DNA of 64,000 bases from NCBI GenBank assembly GCA_964016885.1, contig OZ024741.1, forward strand, positions 74,710,001 to 74,774,000. The letters are read 5' to 3'. The translations under genes and the position numbers were made by a program. Shown piece by piece: positions 7,313 through 55,916 of the stretch; position 1 is the stretch's first letter; the number at the start of each line of letters is the position of its first letter. Below the pieces are notes generated by a model. It was given only the letters and a program-made list of their open reading frames with translations. It searched no databases and was not told the DNA's origin. Source of the DNA: Eledone cirrhosa. Lineage: Eukaryota.

Positions 7313-8103
7313 AGTTTGGTTCAGTTTCAAGGCGCTTGAGGATTTGTCCCGCTGACTTTTACAGGCATTTCAAGACCAAAGATTGATGCTGTTAAAGTTC
7401 ATTTTAATTTGTTGCAGGCAGGGACAGTGGCCATGACCTATATCTGTCTTCTTAGACTGATGATAATGATGCTGTTGAAGTTTAGCTTAAATAGTTGTAG
7501 ATCAACTCTGGCATTTGTTTATATTGTTTTTGTTTCCAGTGAATTTTTACATCTTCCAAAAATAAAAAAAAAAGCTACTAAATAGTATATAAATTCATTT
7601 CTTTCATCATATTCTTAAGACTAATCATTTTTTTAATTCAGTTATTTTCACATATGCCATATATTGAAACATAGATATCACAAGATATCCCGAATAGAGT
7701 TATTTTAATTGAATACATCTATCTCTCTTCAAGAACCAGTTCCATTCAAATATGAGATACTGAATTTAAATGAGAAATCTATAGAATTTTATGGAGGTTG
7801 AATTTTTATTTATGTGCACCTGCAGCTTCTTGCACTTTTACATTATGTTCAACTGCCTTATTCTTTTTGTTTTATTTTTGTTTCTTTTGATTATATATAT
7901 ATATCTTTAGGTTTGTTGGTTCACCACTGGATAGAACTGGTCATTCTGTATGGTCAATCCTGGTGTAATACTGTGAAGAGTACTCAACGCAGTGCAGTTC
8001 ACCCATCTTCGTTTGTGTAGTTGGTGGTGCGAATACGGAGTTAATTATAAATAAAATAAAATAACAGGAGGCTGGACTGGTGTAAATCCTTGAAAGGTTT
8101 ATT

Positions 8104-8161
8104 ATACTATGATCATTTCAATGACTGGGTTCCATATGAATCCGGTGATATCATCAGGTAT
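8104..8161 (-). ncRNA. Type I hammerhead ribozyme
   Basis: Minus: atac-CTGATGA-tatcaccggattcatatggaacccagtcatt-GAAA-tgatca-TA-gtat. Palindromic stem III ATGATCAT, followed by AATAAA. Confidence 0.8.
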
Positions 8162-10616
8162 TGGAATATAACAAAAGGGATATGTAAAAAACCATGGGTC
8201 CGAAAAATAAGAGACAGAGACAAAGAGGACGACTGACCAACTAGCTGCTCGGCCAGTTGCCCTCAAAGTGGTGGCAACTGAATCTACTAATGAACATTTG
8301 GTGAGGGGGCGAAGGCTTATAATGCACTACCACCACTCCGTCAAAGAAAAAAGGGGAAGAAGGAAAGAAAGGGAGAAAGAAGTCAGTGTAAGGGTCATAC
8401 TACATTCATGCTAGAAAATGCCGCGAAAAAATGCTACTCCAAAGAATCTATAATGGGTGTCTGTATGGTCTGTGTGAACCGAAGATTGGAACGTTAAACT
8501 TATGTTGCGAGTTATAGGATGAAATTAAATTAAATTAAAAATATTAAATTGCAAAGTGATAAATTGAAAAATAAGTTATTAGAGAATTAAAGGTTAAGGT
8601 AGCGAGATTTATTTATTTAATGAACTTACGGAGAGAGTCTTATATGAAAAAATTTATCTCGATAAGATATTAGGATGGGATATAGAGTAAAGATATCGAT
8701 TGGGAGTCCCAGCCAGCACACCCCCCACCATGAGTCAGCCAGTTTCGAGTGGTATCATCCAGCGAAAGAAATGGAAATTAATTTTTCCGAGTACTTGAGG
8801 AACGTAGCTACCATAGGCTCAGGGAGCGCTAGTGGGAATTCCACAATTTCGACAGGCCATCGTCTATACCAAATACTATTAGATCACACATTAGGGGTTT
8901 ATTTACGTGCCAGTAGAGGCATGATACAGCTAATAGTTATGCCTAAATCTGGAGTTTATAGGTATAAATATAATGTGGCAGCCAAAAACAGGCGGCGCAG
9001 TGGGACTGGGGCAAAGCAAGCCGCTCTGAGTAATTTCGTTTACCGAAAGAGGAGAAATTTAATTTTCCAAGCACTCAAGGAAGGCTGAACTTTCCGAGTG
9101 CCCAGCGCGCAACCGGGAAAAGCCACCACACAAGTCGAAGGTAGCAACCCAATGAAAAGTGCAAATAGACCAAAATTATTTTAAAGTCCCAGTTAGTCCG
9201 GGTTATAAGTAGTGTGGTTCTTAGGTGGGTAGGGGGCTATGAAAGATGCATAATGGCCTGAGTAAGGAAAGTTACAAAAAAATAATAAAAGCAGCATACA
9301 AAGATAAAATACTAATATAAAGATAGAATACATTGATAAAAATACATTAATAAAATAATAAAATAATAAAAAAATAATAAAATAATAAAAAAATATACAT
9401 TAATGAAATAAAAAAAAAAATTAATAAAGGTAAATAAGAATCAATATAGATCAAGTTGTAGTAAGATAATACAGGTTGTACATATAGATATAGAGGATGG
9501 AGGAGATGGAATGGTAACAGGTTGTACCTAGTGTAAAGTTCGGGTCTCCGAATTCAGTGCGAGTCACAAAAGGTCCTGAGGTATAGAGTAGAGAATTCAG
9601 TCAATACAATACATGTTTTAGTATAATACATGGAGTTTGTCGGAATCGGAATCATCCCGACAAGGAAGTAGTATCAGGTGGCGGTAGATAAGGCGCAGAG
9701 CAGCCAAAATCCGAATGGTAAGTAGATCAGTTTTTTTAATGTATATTTTTTAATTATTTTATTAATTTATTATTTTTTTAATTATTTTATTAATGTATTT
9801 TTATCAATGTATTCTATCTTTATATTGGTATCTTTGTATGCTGCTTTTATTATTTTTTTGTAACTTTCCTTACTCAGGTCATTATGCACCTTTCATAGCC
9901 CCCTACCCACCTAAGAACCACACTACTTATAACCCGGACTAACTGGGACTTTAAAATAATTTTGGTCTATTTGCACTTTTCATTGGGTTGTTACCTTCGA
10001 CTTGTGTGGTGGCTTTTCCCGGCTGCGCGCTGGGCACTCGGAAAGTTCAGCCTTCCTCGAGTGCTTGGAAAAATAAATTTCTCCTCTTTCGGTAAACAAA
10101 ATTACTCGGAGCGGCTTGCTTTGCCCCAGTCCCACCACGTCGCCTGTTTTGGCTGCCACATTATACTTATACCTATAAACTCCAGATTTAGGCATAACTA
10201 TTAGCTGTATCATGCCTCTACTGGCACGTAAATAAACCCCTAATGTGTGATTTAATAGTATTTGGTATAGACGATGGCCTGTCGAAATTGTGGAGTTCCC
10301 GCTAGCGCTCCCTGAGCCTATGGTAGCTACATTCCTCGAGTACTCGGAAAAATTAATTTACATTTCCGTAAGTTCATTAAATAAATAAATAAATCTCGCT
10401 ACCTTAACCTTTAATTCTCTAATAACTTATTTTTCAATTTATCACTTTGCAATTTAATATTTTTACGGAGGAAGTTATAGTTCACTTGAAGCATTGTGTA
10501 ATGAGGTATAAACGTTTGTATTTGTAAAGCCAAGACAATGCAGGTATGGACATAGAATAAAGAATGCAAATGATATTGTTGACAATTAGTCTTTTACCTT
10601 AGATTTATTTAAATGT

Positions 10617-10651
10617 CCTTAATTTTCGAGATAATATCTCTTCTTCGGAGG
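10617..10651 (-). ncRNA. Minimal hammerhead in PLE 3' region
   Basis: Minus: cct-CCGAAGA-a-gagatattatctc-GAAA-at-TA-agg, then AATAAA. U4C variant. Confidence 0.7.
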
Positions 10652-10963
10652 GAAGTAAAGCGGTTAAACCAGTTTTCTAAATAGCTTGCCAAGTCATGCT
10701 GACAGGAAATGGTATAGGGTATCTGTTCTATCTCTAATGTCAAAGAGTTAAGGTTAGGTGGATAAAGAGTAGTCTCCCTTTAAAAGGGTTTTTTTGTACA
10801 TGCCTGTTTAAGTGTGTGGGAGAATGCGTGAAGGTGTAAGTATGTGTGCGTGTGAGTGTGAGAAGATATGTCTATACGTAAATGTGGGGGATAGATGTTC
10901 TCTCGTGTTAGAACTGGTATTTGTGTGTGTATGTCTGTGTGAGAGAGAATAAGTGGAGGTGTA

Positions 10964-11007
<44 letters not shown>

Positions 11008-11048
11008 CGCGTGTGTGAGGGGGTGTAAGTATGGGGCTAGATACTCTA

Positions 11049-11695
11049 TCAAGTTATAAATTGGGTGTTGAGTTCTAGTCTATTATTGATTGGTGGTTGT
11101 GTTTTGTCTATAATTAGTGCTTCCTTAATTCTAAGATTGCCGAGGTTTCTTTCCTTAGTTTCTATCCTAACTGTTATGGTTTTGTCGGTGTTTTTGCATT
11201 TCACTAGGTGTTTCTTAAATGAGGAAGCGTTAGTCTTGAGGTGTTCTTTTATTCTTATGTGGAGTGGTCTAGTGGTGCTACCTACGTAGAAGTTGCTGCA
11301 TTTGTCGCACTCTAGTCTGTATACGACGTAAGCCTGGTGGCATAGGTCTGTGTCGTTGATGGGGCAGTTGGCTAGCCTGCAGCGGTTGTCATGTCTGGTG
11401 GAGTGTTTTTTGGTTAGCTGTCCGCGTAGAGAAGGACCTGAGTGGGCCAGTTGGATATCTAGTCCCTCTCGTCTGATAGCTCTGTGGATGGCTGTTGTTG
11501 TTTCGTCACTGAAGTGTGGGAGCTTCAGGAAGCAAGTGTTAGTGCTTCAGGGGTGGTGTCCTCTGTTCTTTCTGACACGGTTTGTGGTGGATGTCGTGTA
11601 TCCGTTCAGTTTGAGTACTTCCAGGAAATGTGTGGTGTGTGTGTCTCGGTCTCTTGCGTCAGTGCATTTGTTCCGGATACGTGTTAGTTCGTTCC
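11049..11695 (-). pseudogene. PLE RT C-terminus / Cys-rich linker / GIY-YIG endonuclease fragment
   Basis: Manual translation ...FLKLPHFSDETT...RCRLANCPINDTDLCHQAYVVYRLECDKCSNFYVGSTTRPLHIRIKEHL...LRIKEALII...PPINN. One internal stop, no start. Confidence 0.85.
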
Positions 11696-12084
11696 TTAAT
11701 ATTTTTAATTTAATTTAATTTCATCCTATAACTCGCAACATAAGTTTAACATTCCAATCTTCGGTTCACACATTAGACCATACAGACACCCATTATAGAT
11801 TCTTTGGAGTAGCATTTTTTCGCGGCATTTTCTAGCATGAATGTAGTATGACCCTTATACTGACTTCTTTCTCCCTTTCTTTCCTTCTTCCCCTTTTTTC
11901 TTTGACGGAGTGGTGGTAGTGCATTATAAGCCTTCGCCCCCTCACCAAATGTTCATTAGTAGATTCAGTTGCCACCACTTTGAGGGCAACTGGCCGAGCA
12001 GCTAGTTGGTCAGTCGTCCTCTTTGTCTCTGTCTCTTATTTTTCGGACCCATGGTTTTTTACATATCCCTTTTGTTATATTCCA

Positions 12085-12142
12085 ATACCTGATGATATCA
12101 CCGGATTCATATGGAACCCAGTCATTGAAATGATCATAGTAT
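12085..12142 (+). ncRNA. Type I hammerhead ribozyme (second copy)
   Basis: atac-CTGATGA(12089-12095)-stem II-GAAA(12127-12130)-tgatca-TA-gtat. Confidence 0.8.
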
Positions 12143-13704
12143 AATAAACCTTTCAAGGATTTACACCAGTCCAGCCTCCTGTTATTTTATTTTATTTATA
12201 ATTAACTCAGTATTCGCACCACCAACTACTCAAACGAAGATGGGTGAACTGCACTGCGTTGAGTACTCTTCACAATATTACACCAGGATTGACCAGTTCT
12301 ATCCAGTGGTGAACCAACAAACCTAAAGAAATAATGCTCCAATAATGTTGAGCACTTCAAAATGAAATATTGAACAGTGGCACTGACTTCAGTGTACAGC
12401 TATTGCCAGCATGGGATTAACTGATCTACTCCCCATTCGGATTTTGGCTGCTCTGCGCCTTATCTACCGCCACCTGATGCTACTTCCTTGTCGGGATGAT
12501 TCTGATTCCGACAAACTCTATGTATTATACTAAAACATGTATTGTATGGACTGAATTCTCTACACTATACCTCAGGACTTTTTGTGACTCGCACTGAATT
12601 TGTGACCCGAACTTTACACTAGGTACAACCTGTTACCATTCCATCTCCTCCATCCTCTATATCTATATGTACAACCTGTATTATTTTACTACAATTTGAT
12701 CTATATTGATTCTTATTTACCTTTATTAATTTTTTGTATTATTTCATTAATGTATATTTTTTTATTATTTTATTATTTTTTTATTATTTTATTATTTTAT
12801 TAATGTATTTTTATCAATGTATTCTATCTTTATATTGGTATTTTATCTTTGTATGCTGCTTTTATTATTTTTTTGTAACTTTCCTTACTCAGGTCATTAT
12901 GCATCTTTCATAGCCCCCTACCCACCTAAGAACCACACTACTTATAACCCGGACTAACTGGGACTTGAAAATAATTCTGGTCTATTTGCACTTTTCATTG
13001 GGTTGCTACCTTCGACTTGTGTGGTGGCTTTTCCCGGCTGCGCGCTGGGCACTCGGAAAGTTCAGCCTTTCTTGAGTGCTTGGAAAAATAAATTTCTCCT
13101 CTTTCGGTAAACAAAATTACTCGGAGCGGCTTGCTTTGCCCCAGTCCCACCGCGCCACCTGTTTTGGCTGCCACATTATACTTATAAACTCCAGGCTTAG
13201 GCATAACTATTAGCTGTATCATGCCTCTACTGGCACGTAAATAAACTCCTAATGTGTGATTTAATAGTATTCGTTTGGTATAGACGATGGCCTGTCGAAA
13301 TTGTGGAGTTCCCGCTAGCGCTCCCGGGGCCTAAGGTAGCTACATTCCTAGAGTACTCGGAAAAATTAATTTACATTTCTTTCACTGGACGATACCACTC
13401 GAGACTGGCTGACTCATGGTGGGGGTTGCTGGCTGCGACCCCCAATCGATATCTTTACTCTATATCCCATCTTAATATCTTATCGAGATAAATTTTTTCA
13501 TATAAGACTCTCTCCGTAAGTTCATTAAATAAATAAATCTCGCTACCTTAACCTTTAATTCTCTAATAACTTATTTTTCAATTTATCACTTTGCAATTTA
13601 ATATTTTTAATTTAATTTAATTTCATCCTATAACTCGCAACATAAGTTTAACGTTCGATAAAATAAAGTTTAACGTGTGTATGTATGTATATATATATAT
13701 ATAT

Positions 13705-14255
13705 GCCAAGGTTAACTTTGCTTTTCATCCGTACGGGGTCGATAAAATAAAGTACCAGTAATGCACTGGCTATTTGCTGGCCTTGTGCCCAAAGTAGAAA
13801 CAATTATTATTATTTGGCAGTATTGGTTGAGGGTCGGACGCCATGCTTTGCAGCATAGAGTTACAGTCCTTTATGGTCTGAGTTCAAATCCCACTGAGGT
13901 TAACTTTGCCTTTCATCCTTACGAGGTCGATAAAAAAAAGCACCAGTAATGTACTGGGGTCGATTTAATTGACTCTCCCTCCCCCAAATTACTGGCCTTG
14001 TGCGTATATAAGAAACCATTATTTTAAAGGGTGGTGGATTGGCAGTATCAGTAGAGTGCCGGACACTATGATTCGCGGCATAGAGTTATGTCCCTTTACG
14101 TTCTGAGTTCAAATCCTGCCGAGGTTAACTTTGCCTTTCATCCTTATGGGGTCGATAAAATAAAGCACCAGTAATGTACTGGGGTCGATTTAATCGACTT
14201 TCCCCTGCTCCCAAATTACTGGCCTTGTGCCTAAATCAGAAACCATTATTATTAT
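13705..14255 (+). mobile_element. Tandem cluster of three MetaSINE-like SINEs
   Basis: Three repeats of GTTAACTTTGCYTTTCATCC..GGTCGATAAAA with ATT tails. Confidence 0.8.
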
Positions 14256-18415: not shown

Positions 18416-19813
18416 TTAGGTGTAGTGTTGACTAATCTCGGGAAGCATGGTGGCCTTAAAGGATGCAGTGTCTCGACAGCTAACAACCGATGCAGGTAGT
18501 TTGCTCCATGCTTCAGCAACTCTGAACGTGAAAAAATGTTTCCGAAAGTCATGGGAACTGTACTGTTTTCTGACTTTGTGGGCATGCCCACGTGTGTTAG
18601 ACACATGGAAATCAAAAAGGTACTCAGGGTTGTTGTTGGCAAGATGGTTAACAATTTTGTGGGTGTTTACCAAGTCAGTTGCCAGGCATCGGAGCTTCAA
18701 TGTATCCATGCCCAGGGAAGCAAGGCGCTCAGAGTATGGTAGATGCCTGATGGAGGGTATTCGCTTGGTTGCATGTCTCTGAACAGTTTCCAGGTGGTCA
18801 ATGTTTTGAGCAAGATAGGGGTTCCAGACTGGTGATGCAAATTCTAAGTGTGGCCGCACCATAGCCATGTACAGCTTTAAATAGATAGCTGGAGAGCGGC
18901 TGACAAAGGTCTTGCTGAGTGATGCTAAGACACCCTCGGCCCTCTTGACAATTTTAGAGACGTGCTTCGTCCAACGCAAATCGCTGCTGACCGTAATGCC
19001 CAGGTCACATTCACAAGAAGACATCTTGATATTAGTGCTGTGGAGGGAGTATGTGGACGCTGGGTTTTTACTCCCAAAATGCATGGTGGTGCAATTGTCC
19101 ACAGCTAGCTTGAGTTGCCAGTCTGAGATCCATTGTTGCATTGTGTCCAGGTCAGACTGCAAGCAAAATCTATAGTGTTCAGGATCTGTCCTTTTTATCT
19201 CAAGGTACAGCTTGATGACATCTGCATACTTTAGTACTGTGGCAGTCTTTAAGTTGGCATCTATGTCATTAATATATGCCACAAACAAAAGGGGGCAAAG
19301 AACAGATCCCTGTGGTACACCTGATGACATCTCATATGGTGAGGAATGCTGTCCCAGAACCGTGACAACCTCTCTTTGACTGAGAATGAAGGACTTCAAC
19401 CAGTTAAAAAGATCATCCTTCACACCCATTGCAGAGAGTTTTGCCATAAGCCTTTTGTGTAGCACAGAATTGAAAGCTTTCACAAAGTCAAGGTAAACAA
19501 CATCCACCCATGAGCCGCCATCAGTGATCCGAGTGATGTCTTCAAGAAACTCAATAAGTTGATCACAACAGCTGGAGTTGGGGATAAATCCAAATTGCGA
19601 GGGCCGGATAAGACTGTGAGAGTTCCAGAAGTTCCAAAGTGTTTCTCTGACACAGGATTCCATCAGTTTAGCAATGCAACTAGTAAGACTGACTGGACGA
19701 TAGTTCACAGGTGATGTGCGGTCACCCTTTTTGAACAGAGGAATGACACTGGCAGTTTTCCACTGTTCTGGAGTAGCACCGTTGTTCCGACAGAATTGGA
19801 AGAAGCGTGACAA
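18416..19813 (-). pseudogene. CR1-type LINE reverse transcriptase (5'-truncated)
   Basis: 465-aa frame with NYRPVSLTS, QFGF, YLDFVKAFNSV, SGVPQGSVL, YADV (catalytic YADD altered), VRPHLEFASPVWNP. (TTA)n tail near 18255. Confidence 0.9.
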
Positions 19814-19949
19814 CTGGTGCAGAAGGAAGTACCCACCACGTTTAAGAAGCAGGTACGTAACACCATCAAGACCAGGAGAGGCATGGTTGCGTTTATTATT
19901 ACTGCTACTTTATTTTATCGACCCTGTAAGGATGAAAGGTATTATTATA

Positions 19950-34639: not shown

Positions 34640-37600
34640 ACACTTCCCTGCAAAAATTCACCCTCTCCCACGAGTGACAGAAAATGCCCAAAACTCCGAG
34701 TTGGCACCATCAATGTGAGCACAATGAAAGGAAGAGCAGGAGAAATCCTGGAGATGTTAGAGTGAAAGGAAATTGATGTATGCTGTGTGCAATAGACTAG
34801 ATGGAGAGGACAGTTCACCAGAGTCCTTGAAGGCAAAAATCAGTGATACAAATTTTTCTGGGTGGGAAACAACAATGGGTTGGGTGGTGTAGGTATACTA
34901 TTGGCTGACAAATGGGTAGATAAGGTAATCTCAGTCAACAGGGAATCATTAAACTCAGACTAGTCCTGAATGAAACAATTGTTACAATTATATCAGCTTA
35001 CACACCCCAAACTGGGTAGCCAGATGAACTTAAGGATAGGTTTTATGAGTCCTTAATGCACACTACTACCCTAACAAACGACAATGACTTCCTAATCATT
35101 GCAGAAGACTTTGGGAAACACTGTGATAGCTTCTATAGAGTCCATGGAGGCTACAGGTTTGGCACGAGAAATTAAGAAGGCTTCAGGCTTCTAGAATTCT
35201 GTGACACCAATGACAAGTCGATATCTAACACAAATTTAAAAAAATCCGACAACCACCTGATTGCCTATAGATCATGGGAGCATTCTACTCAGATAGATGG
35301 ACGGCTGCAAACATAAAAGCCTTCCTTGGTGAGGAATGTACCTCCCAACATAGCTTAGTTGTCAGCGACCGCATTATCAGAACTAGAGGAACTTGGAAAC
35401 AGAAGGCAACCTGGAGAAGAAAGATCTGAAAGCTGAAAGACCCCTAAGCTGGTAACAGATTTAAAGGTATCTTACTCGATGCCTATGACAGTAAAGAAGA
35501 ACAGATAGAGACATTCAATATAGAAGAGCACTATTAGTTCCAAAAAATAACTTACTAAAGGTGACAGATGAGATTTGTGGTTGGAGCAAGACCACCCACA
35601 GGGAAAAGGAGAGTGGCTTGGTGGTGGAACAATAAGGTAGATGAGGCAATTAAGGCCAAGAGACAGGCATGGAAACAATGGAAGAACGGGGGAAGCAGGG
35701 TACATTACATAGAGACCAGGAGGGAAGCTAGGCGACAAGAATACTTAGCTAGAAGGGAAGTGTAGGATAAAAAATTCAAGCATGTTTTACAGCGTGAGGA
35801 CCAGAAAAAGGAGGTGTTCAGGATTGCGAGGCAGTGTGCTAGAGAAAATTGTGATGTCATTGGAGAGAAGTGTGTCCAGAATGATAAAGGTGAGCTTGCC
35901 TCTGAGAAGAAAGCTGTTTGGAAGAGCCATTATGAAAGATTACTGAATGAGGATGGGAGAAAGAGAGCTTACCCAATGTGGACCCTATAGAGGTCCCAGC
36001 AATACAAGTCAGCAGCAGTGTAGTAAGTAAGGCAATTAAAGATATGAAGACTGGGAAGGCAACTGGTCCATCGGGTATAGCTGCTGAGATGCTGGTAGCA
36101 ACTGGGTCGGTAGGTCACACCATAACCACATGTATTGTTAATCAAGTAATACTAGAGGGCATCATACTAAATGATTGGCACAGCAACATCATTGTCAACT
36201 GCTACAAGGGTAAAAGAGATGCAGTAGATAGAGGAAAATATAGAGGTATAAAGCTGATGGACCAAGTCATGAATGTAACAGAAAGAGTTATAGCACAGCT
36301 GATTAGGGACTAGATAAATCTAGATGAGATGCAATTTGGGTTTCTGCCAGGCAAACGCACCATTGATGCCCTCTTCTTTGTGAGGCAGTTACTGGAAAAG
36401 TACCTAGGTAAAAGTAAGCTGCTCTACCTGGCATTTGTTGATCTGGAAAATGCATTCGACAGAATGCCCTGTGCTATAATCTGGTAGGCACTTAGAAAAC
36501 TAGGAGTAGATGATGGCTTGTGAAGGCTGTACAAGCTATGTATAGGGAAGCAGTCAGTAAAGTTAGGGCTAACAATGACTATAGCGTGGAATTTAGCATA
36601 CAGGTCAGTGTCCACCAGTGCTCTGTTCTTAGCCCTCTCCTGTTTATTATAGTATTGCAGGCTACACAGTAGTTTAAGACCGGATGCCCATGGGAACTTC
36701 TCTACACAGATGATCTTACACTTATAGCTGAATTTATGGTGGAACTAGAGAAGGAATTCCAAATATGGAAGCAGGGACTAGAAAGAAGGGGTCTCAAAGT
36801 CAACCTGACAAAGACTAAGGTCCTCGTAAGTAGGCAAGAAAATAGAACCCAGACACCCTCAGGGAAATGGCCTTGCTCAGTATGTAGGAAAGGTGCAGGT
36901 AGAAATTTCATCCTCTGCCCCATATGCAAACTATTGGTACAGAAGAGATATAGTAGGATCTCAAGAAGTTTAGTTAAGAATGTAGGCTTTACATGTAGCA
37001 GTTGCACCGGGACAGTAAGCAGCAAACGGCCACTGTAAACAAGCACTACCAAACTCTGGGAGGGCTCTGTAGAAACGGTAGACAGCTTCTGTTACCTAGG
37101 TGACCAAATTAGCAGCGGGGGTGGGTGTTCTTAAAGTAGAGTAACCAGGGTAAGAATGGGATGGAAGAAGTTCAGGGAGCTACTACCATTGCTAGCTGCA
37201 AAAAGCTTTTCCCTCAAAATGAAAGGTGGACTGTATGATGTGTGCATATGAACAGCAATGTTACATGGTAGTGAGACCTGGGTGTTGTGTGCAGAAGACT
37301 TGCATAGGTTAGAAAGAAACAAACCTTGCATGCTCCGATGGATGCATAATAGTAATATACGCGAATGGCAAAGCATAAATGAACTGAGAGAGAGACTAAG
37401 CATAAGAAAAATCAAATGCTGTATGCAGGAGAAGAGATTACGTTGGTATGGACATGTGATGCATATGAGGGATGACAGCTTCATAAAAATGTGCAGAGCA
37501 CTAAAAGTCAATGGAAGCCTTGGAGTGGGGAGATCCAAGAAGACCTGGGATGAGGTGATAAAAGCTGATCTTGCTCAATTCCACCTCTAAAAGGTAATGA

Positions 37601-54054: not shown

Positions 54055-55916
54055 TGTTGGAGATAAATGTGTCCGGAATGATGCCGGTGTACTTTGTGAC
54101 ACGAATGATCAGAAAAAGGAGGCCTGGAAATGTCATTATGAGAGACTGCTGAATGTGGTGAACTAATGGGAGAGAGAGAAATTACCCTCAGTAGATCCGA
54201 CAGAGGGACCAGCTATTGAGATTGACGAATATAGGGTCCAAGAGGCGATTAAGGAAATGAAAAATGGTAAGGCTGCTGGACCATCGAGGATAGTTGCTGA
54301 GATGCTGAAGGCATCAGAGGACGTAGGCACTAAACTGGTTGCACGCATCATAAATCAGGATATATATGGTGGTGTCATGCCTAAAGACTGGTGCAGCAGT
54401 ATTCTCATAAATTGTTACAAAGGTAAAGGGGATGCTCTGGAGAAGAGCAATTATAGGGGTATAAAACTGATGGATCAGGTCATGAAAGTGTCAGAAAGGA
54501 TATTAGCACAACTAATTAGAGAAAGGGTCAAACTAGATGAGATGCAGTTTGGTTTTGTGCCTGGGAAGAGTACAACAGATGCCCTCTTCTTGGTGAGACA
54601 ATTGCAAGAGAGGTTCTTAGAGAAAGATAAGCCACTATACTTAGCCTTTGTTGACCTAGAGAAGGCCTTTGATAGGGTACCCCGATCTGTCATCTGGTGG
54701 TCCTTAAGCAAACTAGGTGTTGAGGAATGGCTTGTGAGGACAGTGCAAGCTTTGTACAGAGGTGCTGTCAGCAAAGTGAGAGTAGGAATGGAGTTTAGTG
54801 AGGAATTCCAGATACAAGTAGGAGTACATCAGGGTTTGGTCCTCAGCCCGCTCTTGTTCATTATAGTCCTCCAAGCCATAACAGAGGAGTTTAAGACTGG
54901 CTGTTCATGGGAACTTCTCTATGCTGACGATCTGGTTCTTATAGCAGAATCAGTAGAGGAGCTAAAGAATAAATTCTGGCTATGGAAACAGCAGTTGGAA
55001 GCAAGAGGACTGAGAGTGAACCTAGTTAAGACAAAAGTGTTGATGAGTAGAAAAGAGGACAAAACTCTGATTCCGTCAGGGAAATGGCCATGTTTGATAT
55101 GCAGAAAAGGAACTGGCATAAATTCTATAAAATGCACACATGCAGATCCTGGGTACACAAGAAATGTAGTGGGATAGCAGGCAAACTAACAGGTAGGGAG
55201 AAATACGTATGCAGTAGATGTACAGGGAAATTAGACAGTAGAAGTCGTATTGATAGACACATTTTTCAAATGCAGGCGGGTGCTATAGAAGTGGTGGATA
55301 GCTTCCAGTACCTAGGAGATCAGATTAGCTTGGGAGGGTGGTGTTCCAAGGCCATAGTATCTAGAATAAGCACGGGTTGGAAGAAGTTTAGGGAGCTGCT
55401 TCCTCTGCTGACGAAGAAGGGTTTCTCCCTGCGTATGAAAGGCCGGTTATATGATGCCTGTGTGAGGAGCGTGATGCTGTATGGTAGTGAGACATGGGCA
55501 GCAACTGCAGAGGATATGCGACAGCTGGAGAGAAATGAGGCAAGCATGCTCCGTTGGATGTGCAATGTCAATGTGCGTGAACAACCCACCATGAATGTGT
55601 TGAGAGAGAAACTGTGTCTGAGAGGGATAGAATGTAGTGTGCGAGAGAGGAGACTGAGGTGGTATGTACATGTGATGCGCATAGAGGATGACCGATGGGT
55701 GAAGAAGTGCCAGGAAATGTCAGTTGAAGGGAGACGTGGTAGAGGTAGACCACGAAAAACATGGGCAGAGGTGGTGAGAACAGACCTCAGATCGCTGAAG
55801 CTTACGGTGGAGATGACAAAGGACCATGACAAGTGGAGAGATGCTGTGCTGAATAAGACCTGTCCCACCCTTGCAAGCAGGGAAAAGTGGACGTAAAATG
55901 ATGATGATGATGATGA
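54055..55916 (+). mobile_element. 5'-truncated RTE LINE, RT with one frameshift
   Basis: ORFs 54257-55177 (QFGF, AFVDLEKAFDRV, HQG..LSP, YADD) and 55084-55896 (FQYLG, YGSETW, GRPRKTW), then a (TGA)n tail. Confidence 0.92.

Follow-up and report, generated by a model that had tools for sequence, protein, structure and literature searches.

A non-coding 1.9-kb hammerhead family in Eledone cirrhosa, probably moved in trans by the enzyme of a Penelope-like element

A stretch of 64,000 nt from the Eledone cirrhosa genome (assembly GCA_964016885.1, contig OZ024741.1, positions 74,710,001 to 74,774,000 of the forward strand; hereafter the window, in whose coordinates positions are given) contains at 7905–13656 three related pieces of DNA, one of them inverted, with two copies of a type I hammerhead ribozyme motif. 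The question raised by this locus is what kind of element it represents: a mobile family in its own right, an oversized retrozyme, the untranslated region (UTR) of a coding Penelope-like element (PLE), or a rearrangement. Our reading, to which we assign a probability of about 0.85, is that a single insertion with two arms, from a non-coding 1.9-kb family termed U, makes up the locus, that an unrelated coding PLE later broke it, and that U is likely mobilised in trans by a PLE reverse transcriptase-endonuclease.

Architecture of the locus

A first-pass annotation of the window had proposed three overlapping copies, an inverted A, an interrupted B and a tandem C, and self-comparison of the window bears this out, with mutual identities of 94–97%. 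Unit positions (q) are numbered along arm A on the minus strand, such that q1 is 9730 and q1826 is 7905. A (7905–9730, minus) aligns with C (12421–13656, 95%) and with both parts of B (B3, 11696–12333, 97%; B1, 9736–10366, 95%). The order is inverted A, B in two parts around an insert, a 92-nt linker, and C (q1–1242). B itself comprises q328–961, a deletion of ∼137 bp (first put at ∼150 bp), q1099–1195, the insert and q1184–1826. The features are:

7905–9730, minus strand: arm A, a near-complete U unit (q1–1826) whose 'long' 3′ end at 7905 enters (TA)n
7905–8045, minus strand: tail of arm A, 141 nt, lying between the family's short 3′ end at q1685 and its long one at q1826
8104–8161, minus strand: type I hammerhead in A, with CUGAUGA core, U10.1.U11.1 and palindromic stem III AUGAUCAU; the cut is predicted to follow 8108
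9736–10464, plus strand: first part of arm B (q328–961, the ∼137-bp deletion, q1099–1195), head-to-head with A
10454–10464, plus strand: left copy of the 11-bp target duplication TTAATATTTTT
10465–11695, minus strand: 5′-truncated coding PLE inserted in B, separate from U
10615–10655, minus strand: minimal hammerhead-like motif of the inserted PLE, of the G10.1-C11.1 type, unlike U
11049–11546, minus strand: GIY-YIG endonuclease frame of the inserted PLE, 165 aa (PF01541)
11547–11695, minus strand: preceding piece of the GIY-YIG open reading frame (ORF) of the inserted PLE, in another reading frame
11696–11706, plus strand: right copy of the 11-bp target duplication
11696–12328, plus strand: last part of arm B (q1184–1826)
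12085–12142, plus strand: hammerhead of arm B, type I, with its cut predicted to follow 12138 and a stem II G>A relative to most copies
12201–12328, plus strand: tail in B, 13 nt shorter than the tail of intact copies
12329–12420, plus strand: 92-nt segment that in tandem copies stands between the long end and the following q1; holds the QHGIN codons
12421–13656, plus strand: piece C (q1–1242), tandem continuation of B, with a non-standard end and neither hammerhead nor tail

The long end of A and the B–C junction are exactly the standard ones of family U, and reads from other copies stop at 12200 and 12327–12333, in (TA)n. Since A has the long end, the B–C arm is expected to have the short end; the ∼440 nt absent from that arm's end were probably lost later.

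Some details of the first-pass annotation needed amendment. One hammerhead per unit holds for A and B, but C stops at q1242 before reaching one. The sequence CTCGAGTGCTT, cited as a hairpin, is present in B, but its exact occurrence is confined to B. The QHGIN* codons do exist, but their interpretation as a PLE remnant is unsupported: sister family V (below) lacks them, and 101 PLE ORF pieces have no tblastn match to U. Absence of a real ORF is true of the unit, but the interval as a whole contains the 165-aa GIY-YIG frame, which matches PF01541 with E 4e-7. This frame belongs to the insert, bounded by the 11-bp duplication, whose family is abundant (3539 candidate places in the genome), has its own pair of 3′ ends 40 nt apart, and is one that we take, from its features, to be Penelope/Poseidon-like.

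Family U and the anatomy of its insertions

A count of genomic copies, suggested as a check in the first pass, gave 3705 candidate places for U in the 3.0-Gb genome, 40 of which were scored. Copies are 5′-truncated and depart from the column majority by ∼1–10%, mostly 2–6%. Across 30 loci, U copies mostly terminate at q1685 or q1826, and what comes next is either (TA)n or the tandem spacer; the family has two fixed 3′ ends, short and long, 141 nt apart. In copies that read past q1826, the linker is followed by q1, and the resulting monomer measures 1903–1915 nt (1915 nt in locus L106; junction-to-junction spacing of 1903 nt in L103).

A pattern for the hammerhead core, which U has in common with its sister families V and W, has 3,623 exact matches in the genome and none in a reversed control. 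Among the first 100 matches, 19 have the U loop and about three quarters or more are of V type. To classify arms, the first 100 pattern matches by position were gathered into 85 stretches, which after removal of 10 duplicates left 75 loci. In 45 of these, two arms point outward and meet at their truncated 5′ ends; the other 30 show one arm within the fetched flank. The two-arm loci paired a long with a short end in 37 cases, two short ends in 2 and two long ends in 1, while 5 had a non-standard end. Long+short pairing thus occurs in 37/40 classifiable loci; by hand calculation the chance of at least 37/40 at a 50% expectation is ∼1e-8. Arms of the same locus have 59% of their non-majority variants in common (41 pairs), as against 12% between loci (4778 pairs), which indicates that each locus is one event; divergence between the arms of a locus is 1.1–3.7%.

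These insertions present partial tandems (pseudo-long terminal repeats, pLTRs), an inverted 5′-truncated copy, a tail at one end only, an AT-rich or microsatellite target, (TA)n, and a putative type I hammerhead motif upstream of the 3′ ends. PLE insertions are described in PMC8557442 as having partial tandems, a truncated copy in inverted orientation, and a tail that is often one-ended. The arrangement at our locus is therefore ordinary for PLEs, not unusual, and the proposal of a non-autonomous PLE derivative is supported by this genome-wide anatomy together with the lack of coding capacity. The novelty lies in the size of the unit, the length of its tail and the scale of the family.

Could the triplication instead stem from rearrangement of the local DNA or, as the first pass had allowed, from an artefact of assembly? 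Piece C does have a non-standard end, and the public reads were compared with 12010–12700 only. Against this, dozens of loci across the genome show these tandem and inverted forms, the arms differ by 1–4%, the long end of A and the B–C junction match the family standard exactly, and reads and contigs of four public runs have loose (TA)n ends at the long site, those of two runs (X1 and X6) also at or beside the short site. We consider a rearrangement or an artefact very improbable. A two-arm U insertion (L108) recurs as L109, inverted, ∼364 kb away on C2, by segmental duplication or as an assembly duplicate.

The non-coding nature of U bears on another alternative, that U is only the long UTR or pLTR of a rare coding PLE, its tandem units being repeated copies of internally deleted versions. 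Some coding PLEs of this genome do have long non-coding ends: the Neptune-like NepC has >1.2 kb after its ORF, without a hammerhead, and others have 1.0–1.3 kb. The sample of coding elements is moreover biased because the Pfam GIY-YIG model misses Hydra-type proteins, and Naiad elements lie outside it. Yet no ATG-started ORF >89 aa occurs in 3 U and 6 V stretches; 101 local PLE ORF pieces gave no tblastn match to U (best E 0.037), and no remnant of three Hydra-type proteins was found in U. The genome contains 241 exact read-through junctions, and the first 30 by position all (30/30) enter a non-coding body of U, V or W type (W being a further sister) and none a PLE ORF. All 30 fetched best-hit junction loci are likewise non-coding, so U is not simply the UTR of a coding PLE.

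The sister families point the same way. V, reached via a diverged match, is non-coding and measures 2797–2923 nt from hammerhead to hammerhead in 6 loci; the arms of its two-arm loci are often 97–99% alike. W, reached via a loose-end motif in public reads, has 276 exact matches. U and V are 82% identical over hammerhead and tail (83/85 nt at the hammerhead) and 62–72% in alignable body blocks, and a segment of ∼360 nt, comprising hammerhead, two start sites and tail, is conserved between families. Since U, V and W are collinear and non-coding across the unit despite body divergence of 30–40%, an ORF was gone, or never there, before their split. We regard the UTR account as quite improbable for the present state of these elements; a UTR origin is possible, yet U, V and W would now be independent families.

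Several further observations concern these sisters. Within the V unit (L160:3199–5997, L162–L165, L171) lies a ∼510-bp duplication of a CpG-rich block; U has retained this block too, and it is possibly an internal promoter. Additional sisters, W and intermediates (L267:1427–2798, L216, L221, L215), are 68–85% identical to U or V, one with a 1978-nt unit, and read depth in run X1, far greater over the hammerhead than over the body, makes more such families likely. The motif TGAGT(A/G)C(T/C) recurs in the tails of U, V, W and the coding families Y and Z (below), repeatedly within U, and in another 3′ end in the L309/L361 flanks; its significance is not established.

The hammerhead, the template and the source of the enzyme

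The U hammerhead has a CUGAUGA...GAAA core, a UA cut site, U10.1.U11.1 and a palindromic stem III, and is near-invariant in 41 aligned copies; both hammerheads of the window carry a G>A change that weakens stem II. An Rfam scan gave no match at the gathering score, so the call rests on the motif. How the motif relates to insertion may be seen from PAc, a Poseidon element of Anolis, where the tail is reported to be the stretch between two internal reverse-transcription start sites, with both target strands cut and extended (PMC11167929). By analogy, a PLE enzyme would nick both strands of a (TA)n tract, reverse transcription would begin internally at two sites, which lie ∼62 and ∼200 nt to the 3′ side of the predicted cut, and one arm would be made per strand, the two truncated cDNAs joining head-to-head. 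Every such 3′ end has an intact hammerhead upstream of it, which would make the template either uncut read-through RNA of a partial tandem or a re-ligated circle; we lean slightly toward uncut RNA.

A circular template would fit a different account, that of U as a genuine giant retrozyme: hammerhead dimers would cleave the tandem transcripts, the 1.9-kb monomers would be circularised, and a PLE enzyme would copy the circle into more-than-unit cDNA. The near-invariance of the hammerhead between U and V favours this, as do the palindromic stem III, of a type given as indicating dimer cleavage (PMC4209133), and the U.U at 10.1–11.1, described as a natural variant that supports cleavage (PMC3088659). 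Locus L103 has 2.1 units, the two full ones 0.5% apart with 87/92 private variants common to both, but it could be a recent local duplication. The monomer is predicted in silico to fold as an inactive rod, its core paired with stem III, ∼10 kcal/mol more stable than the active-like model, and insertion of PAc in vitro is reported to be independent of hammerhead cleavage (PMC11167929). Finally, the 241 exact read-through junctions stand against 3,623 exact hammerheads (counted with different patterns), so that most loci would be unable to yield a monomer. We judge the giant retrozyme a serious but rather unlikely alternative.

If U is moved in trans, the enzyme may come from a Hydra-type PLE of the same genome, a proposal that we hold tentatively and at a little under even odds. 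Hydra-clade PLEs are described as having RWK, DKT, a CxCX5C linker and CxxC/CxH in the endonuclease (PMC8557442). In locus L231 the short end of V is joined directly, co-linearly and without TA, to the 3′ UTR and ORF of Z, a young coding family whose 753-aa frame (L398:2044–4305) has the Hydra features RWR, SDKT, CNCLNKEAC (CxCX5C), CDLC and CMH, and whose hammerhead has the CUGAUGA core with U.U, as in U. In L291 a long-end arm of W lies opposite a short-end arm of the Hydra-like family Y, with a Neptune-like fragment between. These chimeric joins are weak evidence for a partner. Octopus Naiads also favour (TA)n, according to the supplement of PMC8557442. Z (98–99% alike) and the older Y are abundant coding PLEs (L398, L307–L327) with Hydra-type motifs that go undetected by Pfam RVT_1 and GIY-YIG.

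A number of results weigh against our reading. The C arm of the window lacks a standard family end. No compensatory changes were found among 37 predicted pairs, and a U.U hammerhead also occurs in a Neptune-like family of the same genome. The search for an autonomous PLE sharing U sequence, another check suggested in the first pass, found none in the GIY-YIG, Z and Y loci examined: U-like ends were seen at 0/50 GIY-YIG loci (among 150 listed), the sole match being a V insertion, and the U hammerhead-tail sequence in none of the fetched Z and Y loci. A relaxed hammerhead pattern had 7 matches; 5 resemble damaged U, V or W copies, and the 2 examined are unrelated. The 83 free 5′ ends include just 2 direct joins apart from the insert of the window itself, and the Neptune-like fragment in L291 is of a different family. 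Tail alignments with Z are not significant (z <1), and those with Y give no consistent picture, with z of 2.4 and 5.1 for U, 2.5 for W and −0.6 for V in a set of 40 comparisons.

Three other candidates for the partner were rejected. The coding PLE inserted in B has no common sequence with U, another hammerhead type, a 40-nt tail and a tail alignment z ≤0.5. NepC, suspected from L291, has a different 3′ UTR and hammerhead, and the 3′ end in L291 is that of family Y. A 7.3-kb tandem with a W tail proved to be a segmental repeat; two such arrays of 7.3–7.4 kb (L287–L294; C3 89.74–89.77 Mb and 90.20–90.23 Mb) have a unit holding a three-part chimeric PLE insertion.

Elsewhere in the window, LINE-like reverse transcriptase fragments were recognised by eye at 18419–19909 (minus), 54167–55893 (plus) and 35860–37476 (497-aa and 336-aa frames), along with many SINE copies, e.g. 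13704–14250, which are presumably octopus-like.

Relation to known elements and meaning

Animal non-LTR retrozymes are expressed as ∼170–400 nt RNAs (PMC7229834), and a 2026 survey that limits the repeat period to 1000 gives consensus lengths of 51–972 bp and argues for a PLE origin (bioRxiv 10.64898/2026.07.22.740005). U resembles them as these sources portray them: it is non-coding, has a GC content of 37–40% (<45% in retrozymes) and one type I hammerhead per unit, and occurs in hammerhead-to-hammerhead tandems; a PLE origin or mobilisation is proposed for both. It differs in size. At 1903–1915 nt the unit is several times the typical length, as the first pass had it, and about twice the longest published animal element of such kind, and V is larger still (2.8–2.9 kb). 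It also differs in being mostly dispersed, as 5′-truncated two-arm insertions rather than satellite-like arrays.

With endonuclease-bearing PLEs (PAc, PMC11167929; PMC8557442) U has in common the partial tandems, the inverted 5′-truncated arm, the one-ended tail, two internal start sites (presumed in U) downstream of the hammerhead and an AT-rich target. Unlike them it lacks an ORF, and its tail is 141 nt against the 30–40 bp reported; neither U nor V has the reverse transcriptase and GIY-YIG ORF of an autonomous PLE. Non-autonomous PLEs of the Chlamys group, e.g. MRC1, are known in green algae (PMC8557442, PMC9940879). MRC1 is likewise a non-coding PLE-type element with pLTRs and head-to-tail copies, but the Chlamys group is described as having an N-terminal endonuclease, and its non-autonomous elements as usually resembling an autonomous family at the 3′ end; U has a canonical-core hammerhead, and no matching autonomous 3′ end was found for it. 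Hydra-clade PLEs share with U (TA)n targeting and canonical hammerheads, and the local Z and Y combine the clade motifs with U.U hammerheads; they are coding, however, and kinship of their ends to U, V or W is not established. In the literature we found no description of family U; repeat libraries (Repbase, Dfam), which were outside this search, may hold it.

As judged from sequence, then, U would behave as a non-autonomous PLE and falls outside the size range of retrozymes. One could go further and see in U, V and W a superfamily of giant (1.9–2.9 kb) animal retrozymes, their expressed RNAs circular and self-cleaving with the help of protein, that hijack the enzyme of a Hydra-clade PLE, whose two subunits start at different fixed sites, giving the long/short arm rule and sometimes a single insertion from parasite RNA and host-element RNA; the odds are well against this speculative extension.

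Previous arguments that PLEs mobilise animal retrozymes drew on co-occurrence and on the similarity of pLTRs. In the present case the insertion footprint of the PLE enzyme is seen directly on a hammerhead family without coding capacity, at thousands of loci, and the range of retrozyme-like sizes is extended past the reach of period-limited tandem searches. The conserved cis-element of ∼360 nt offers a testable object for studying template recognition by PLE enzymes in trans and a possible division of the start sites between their subunits.

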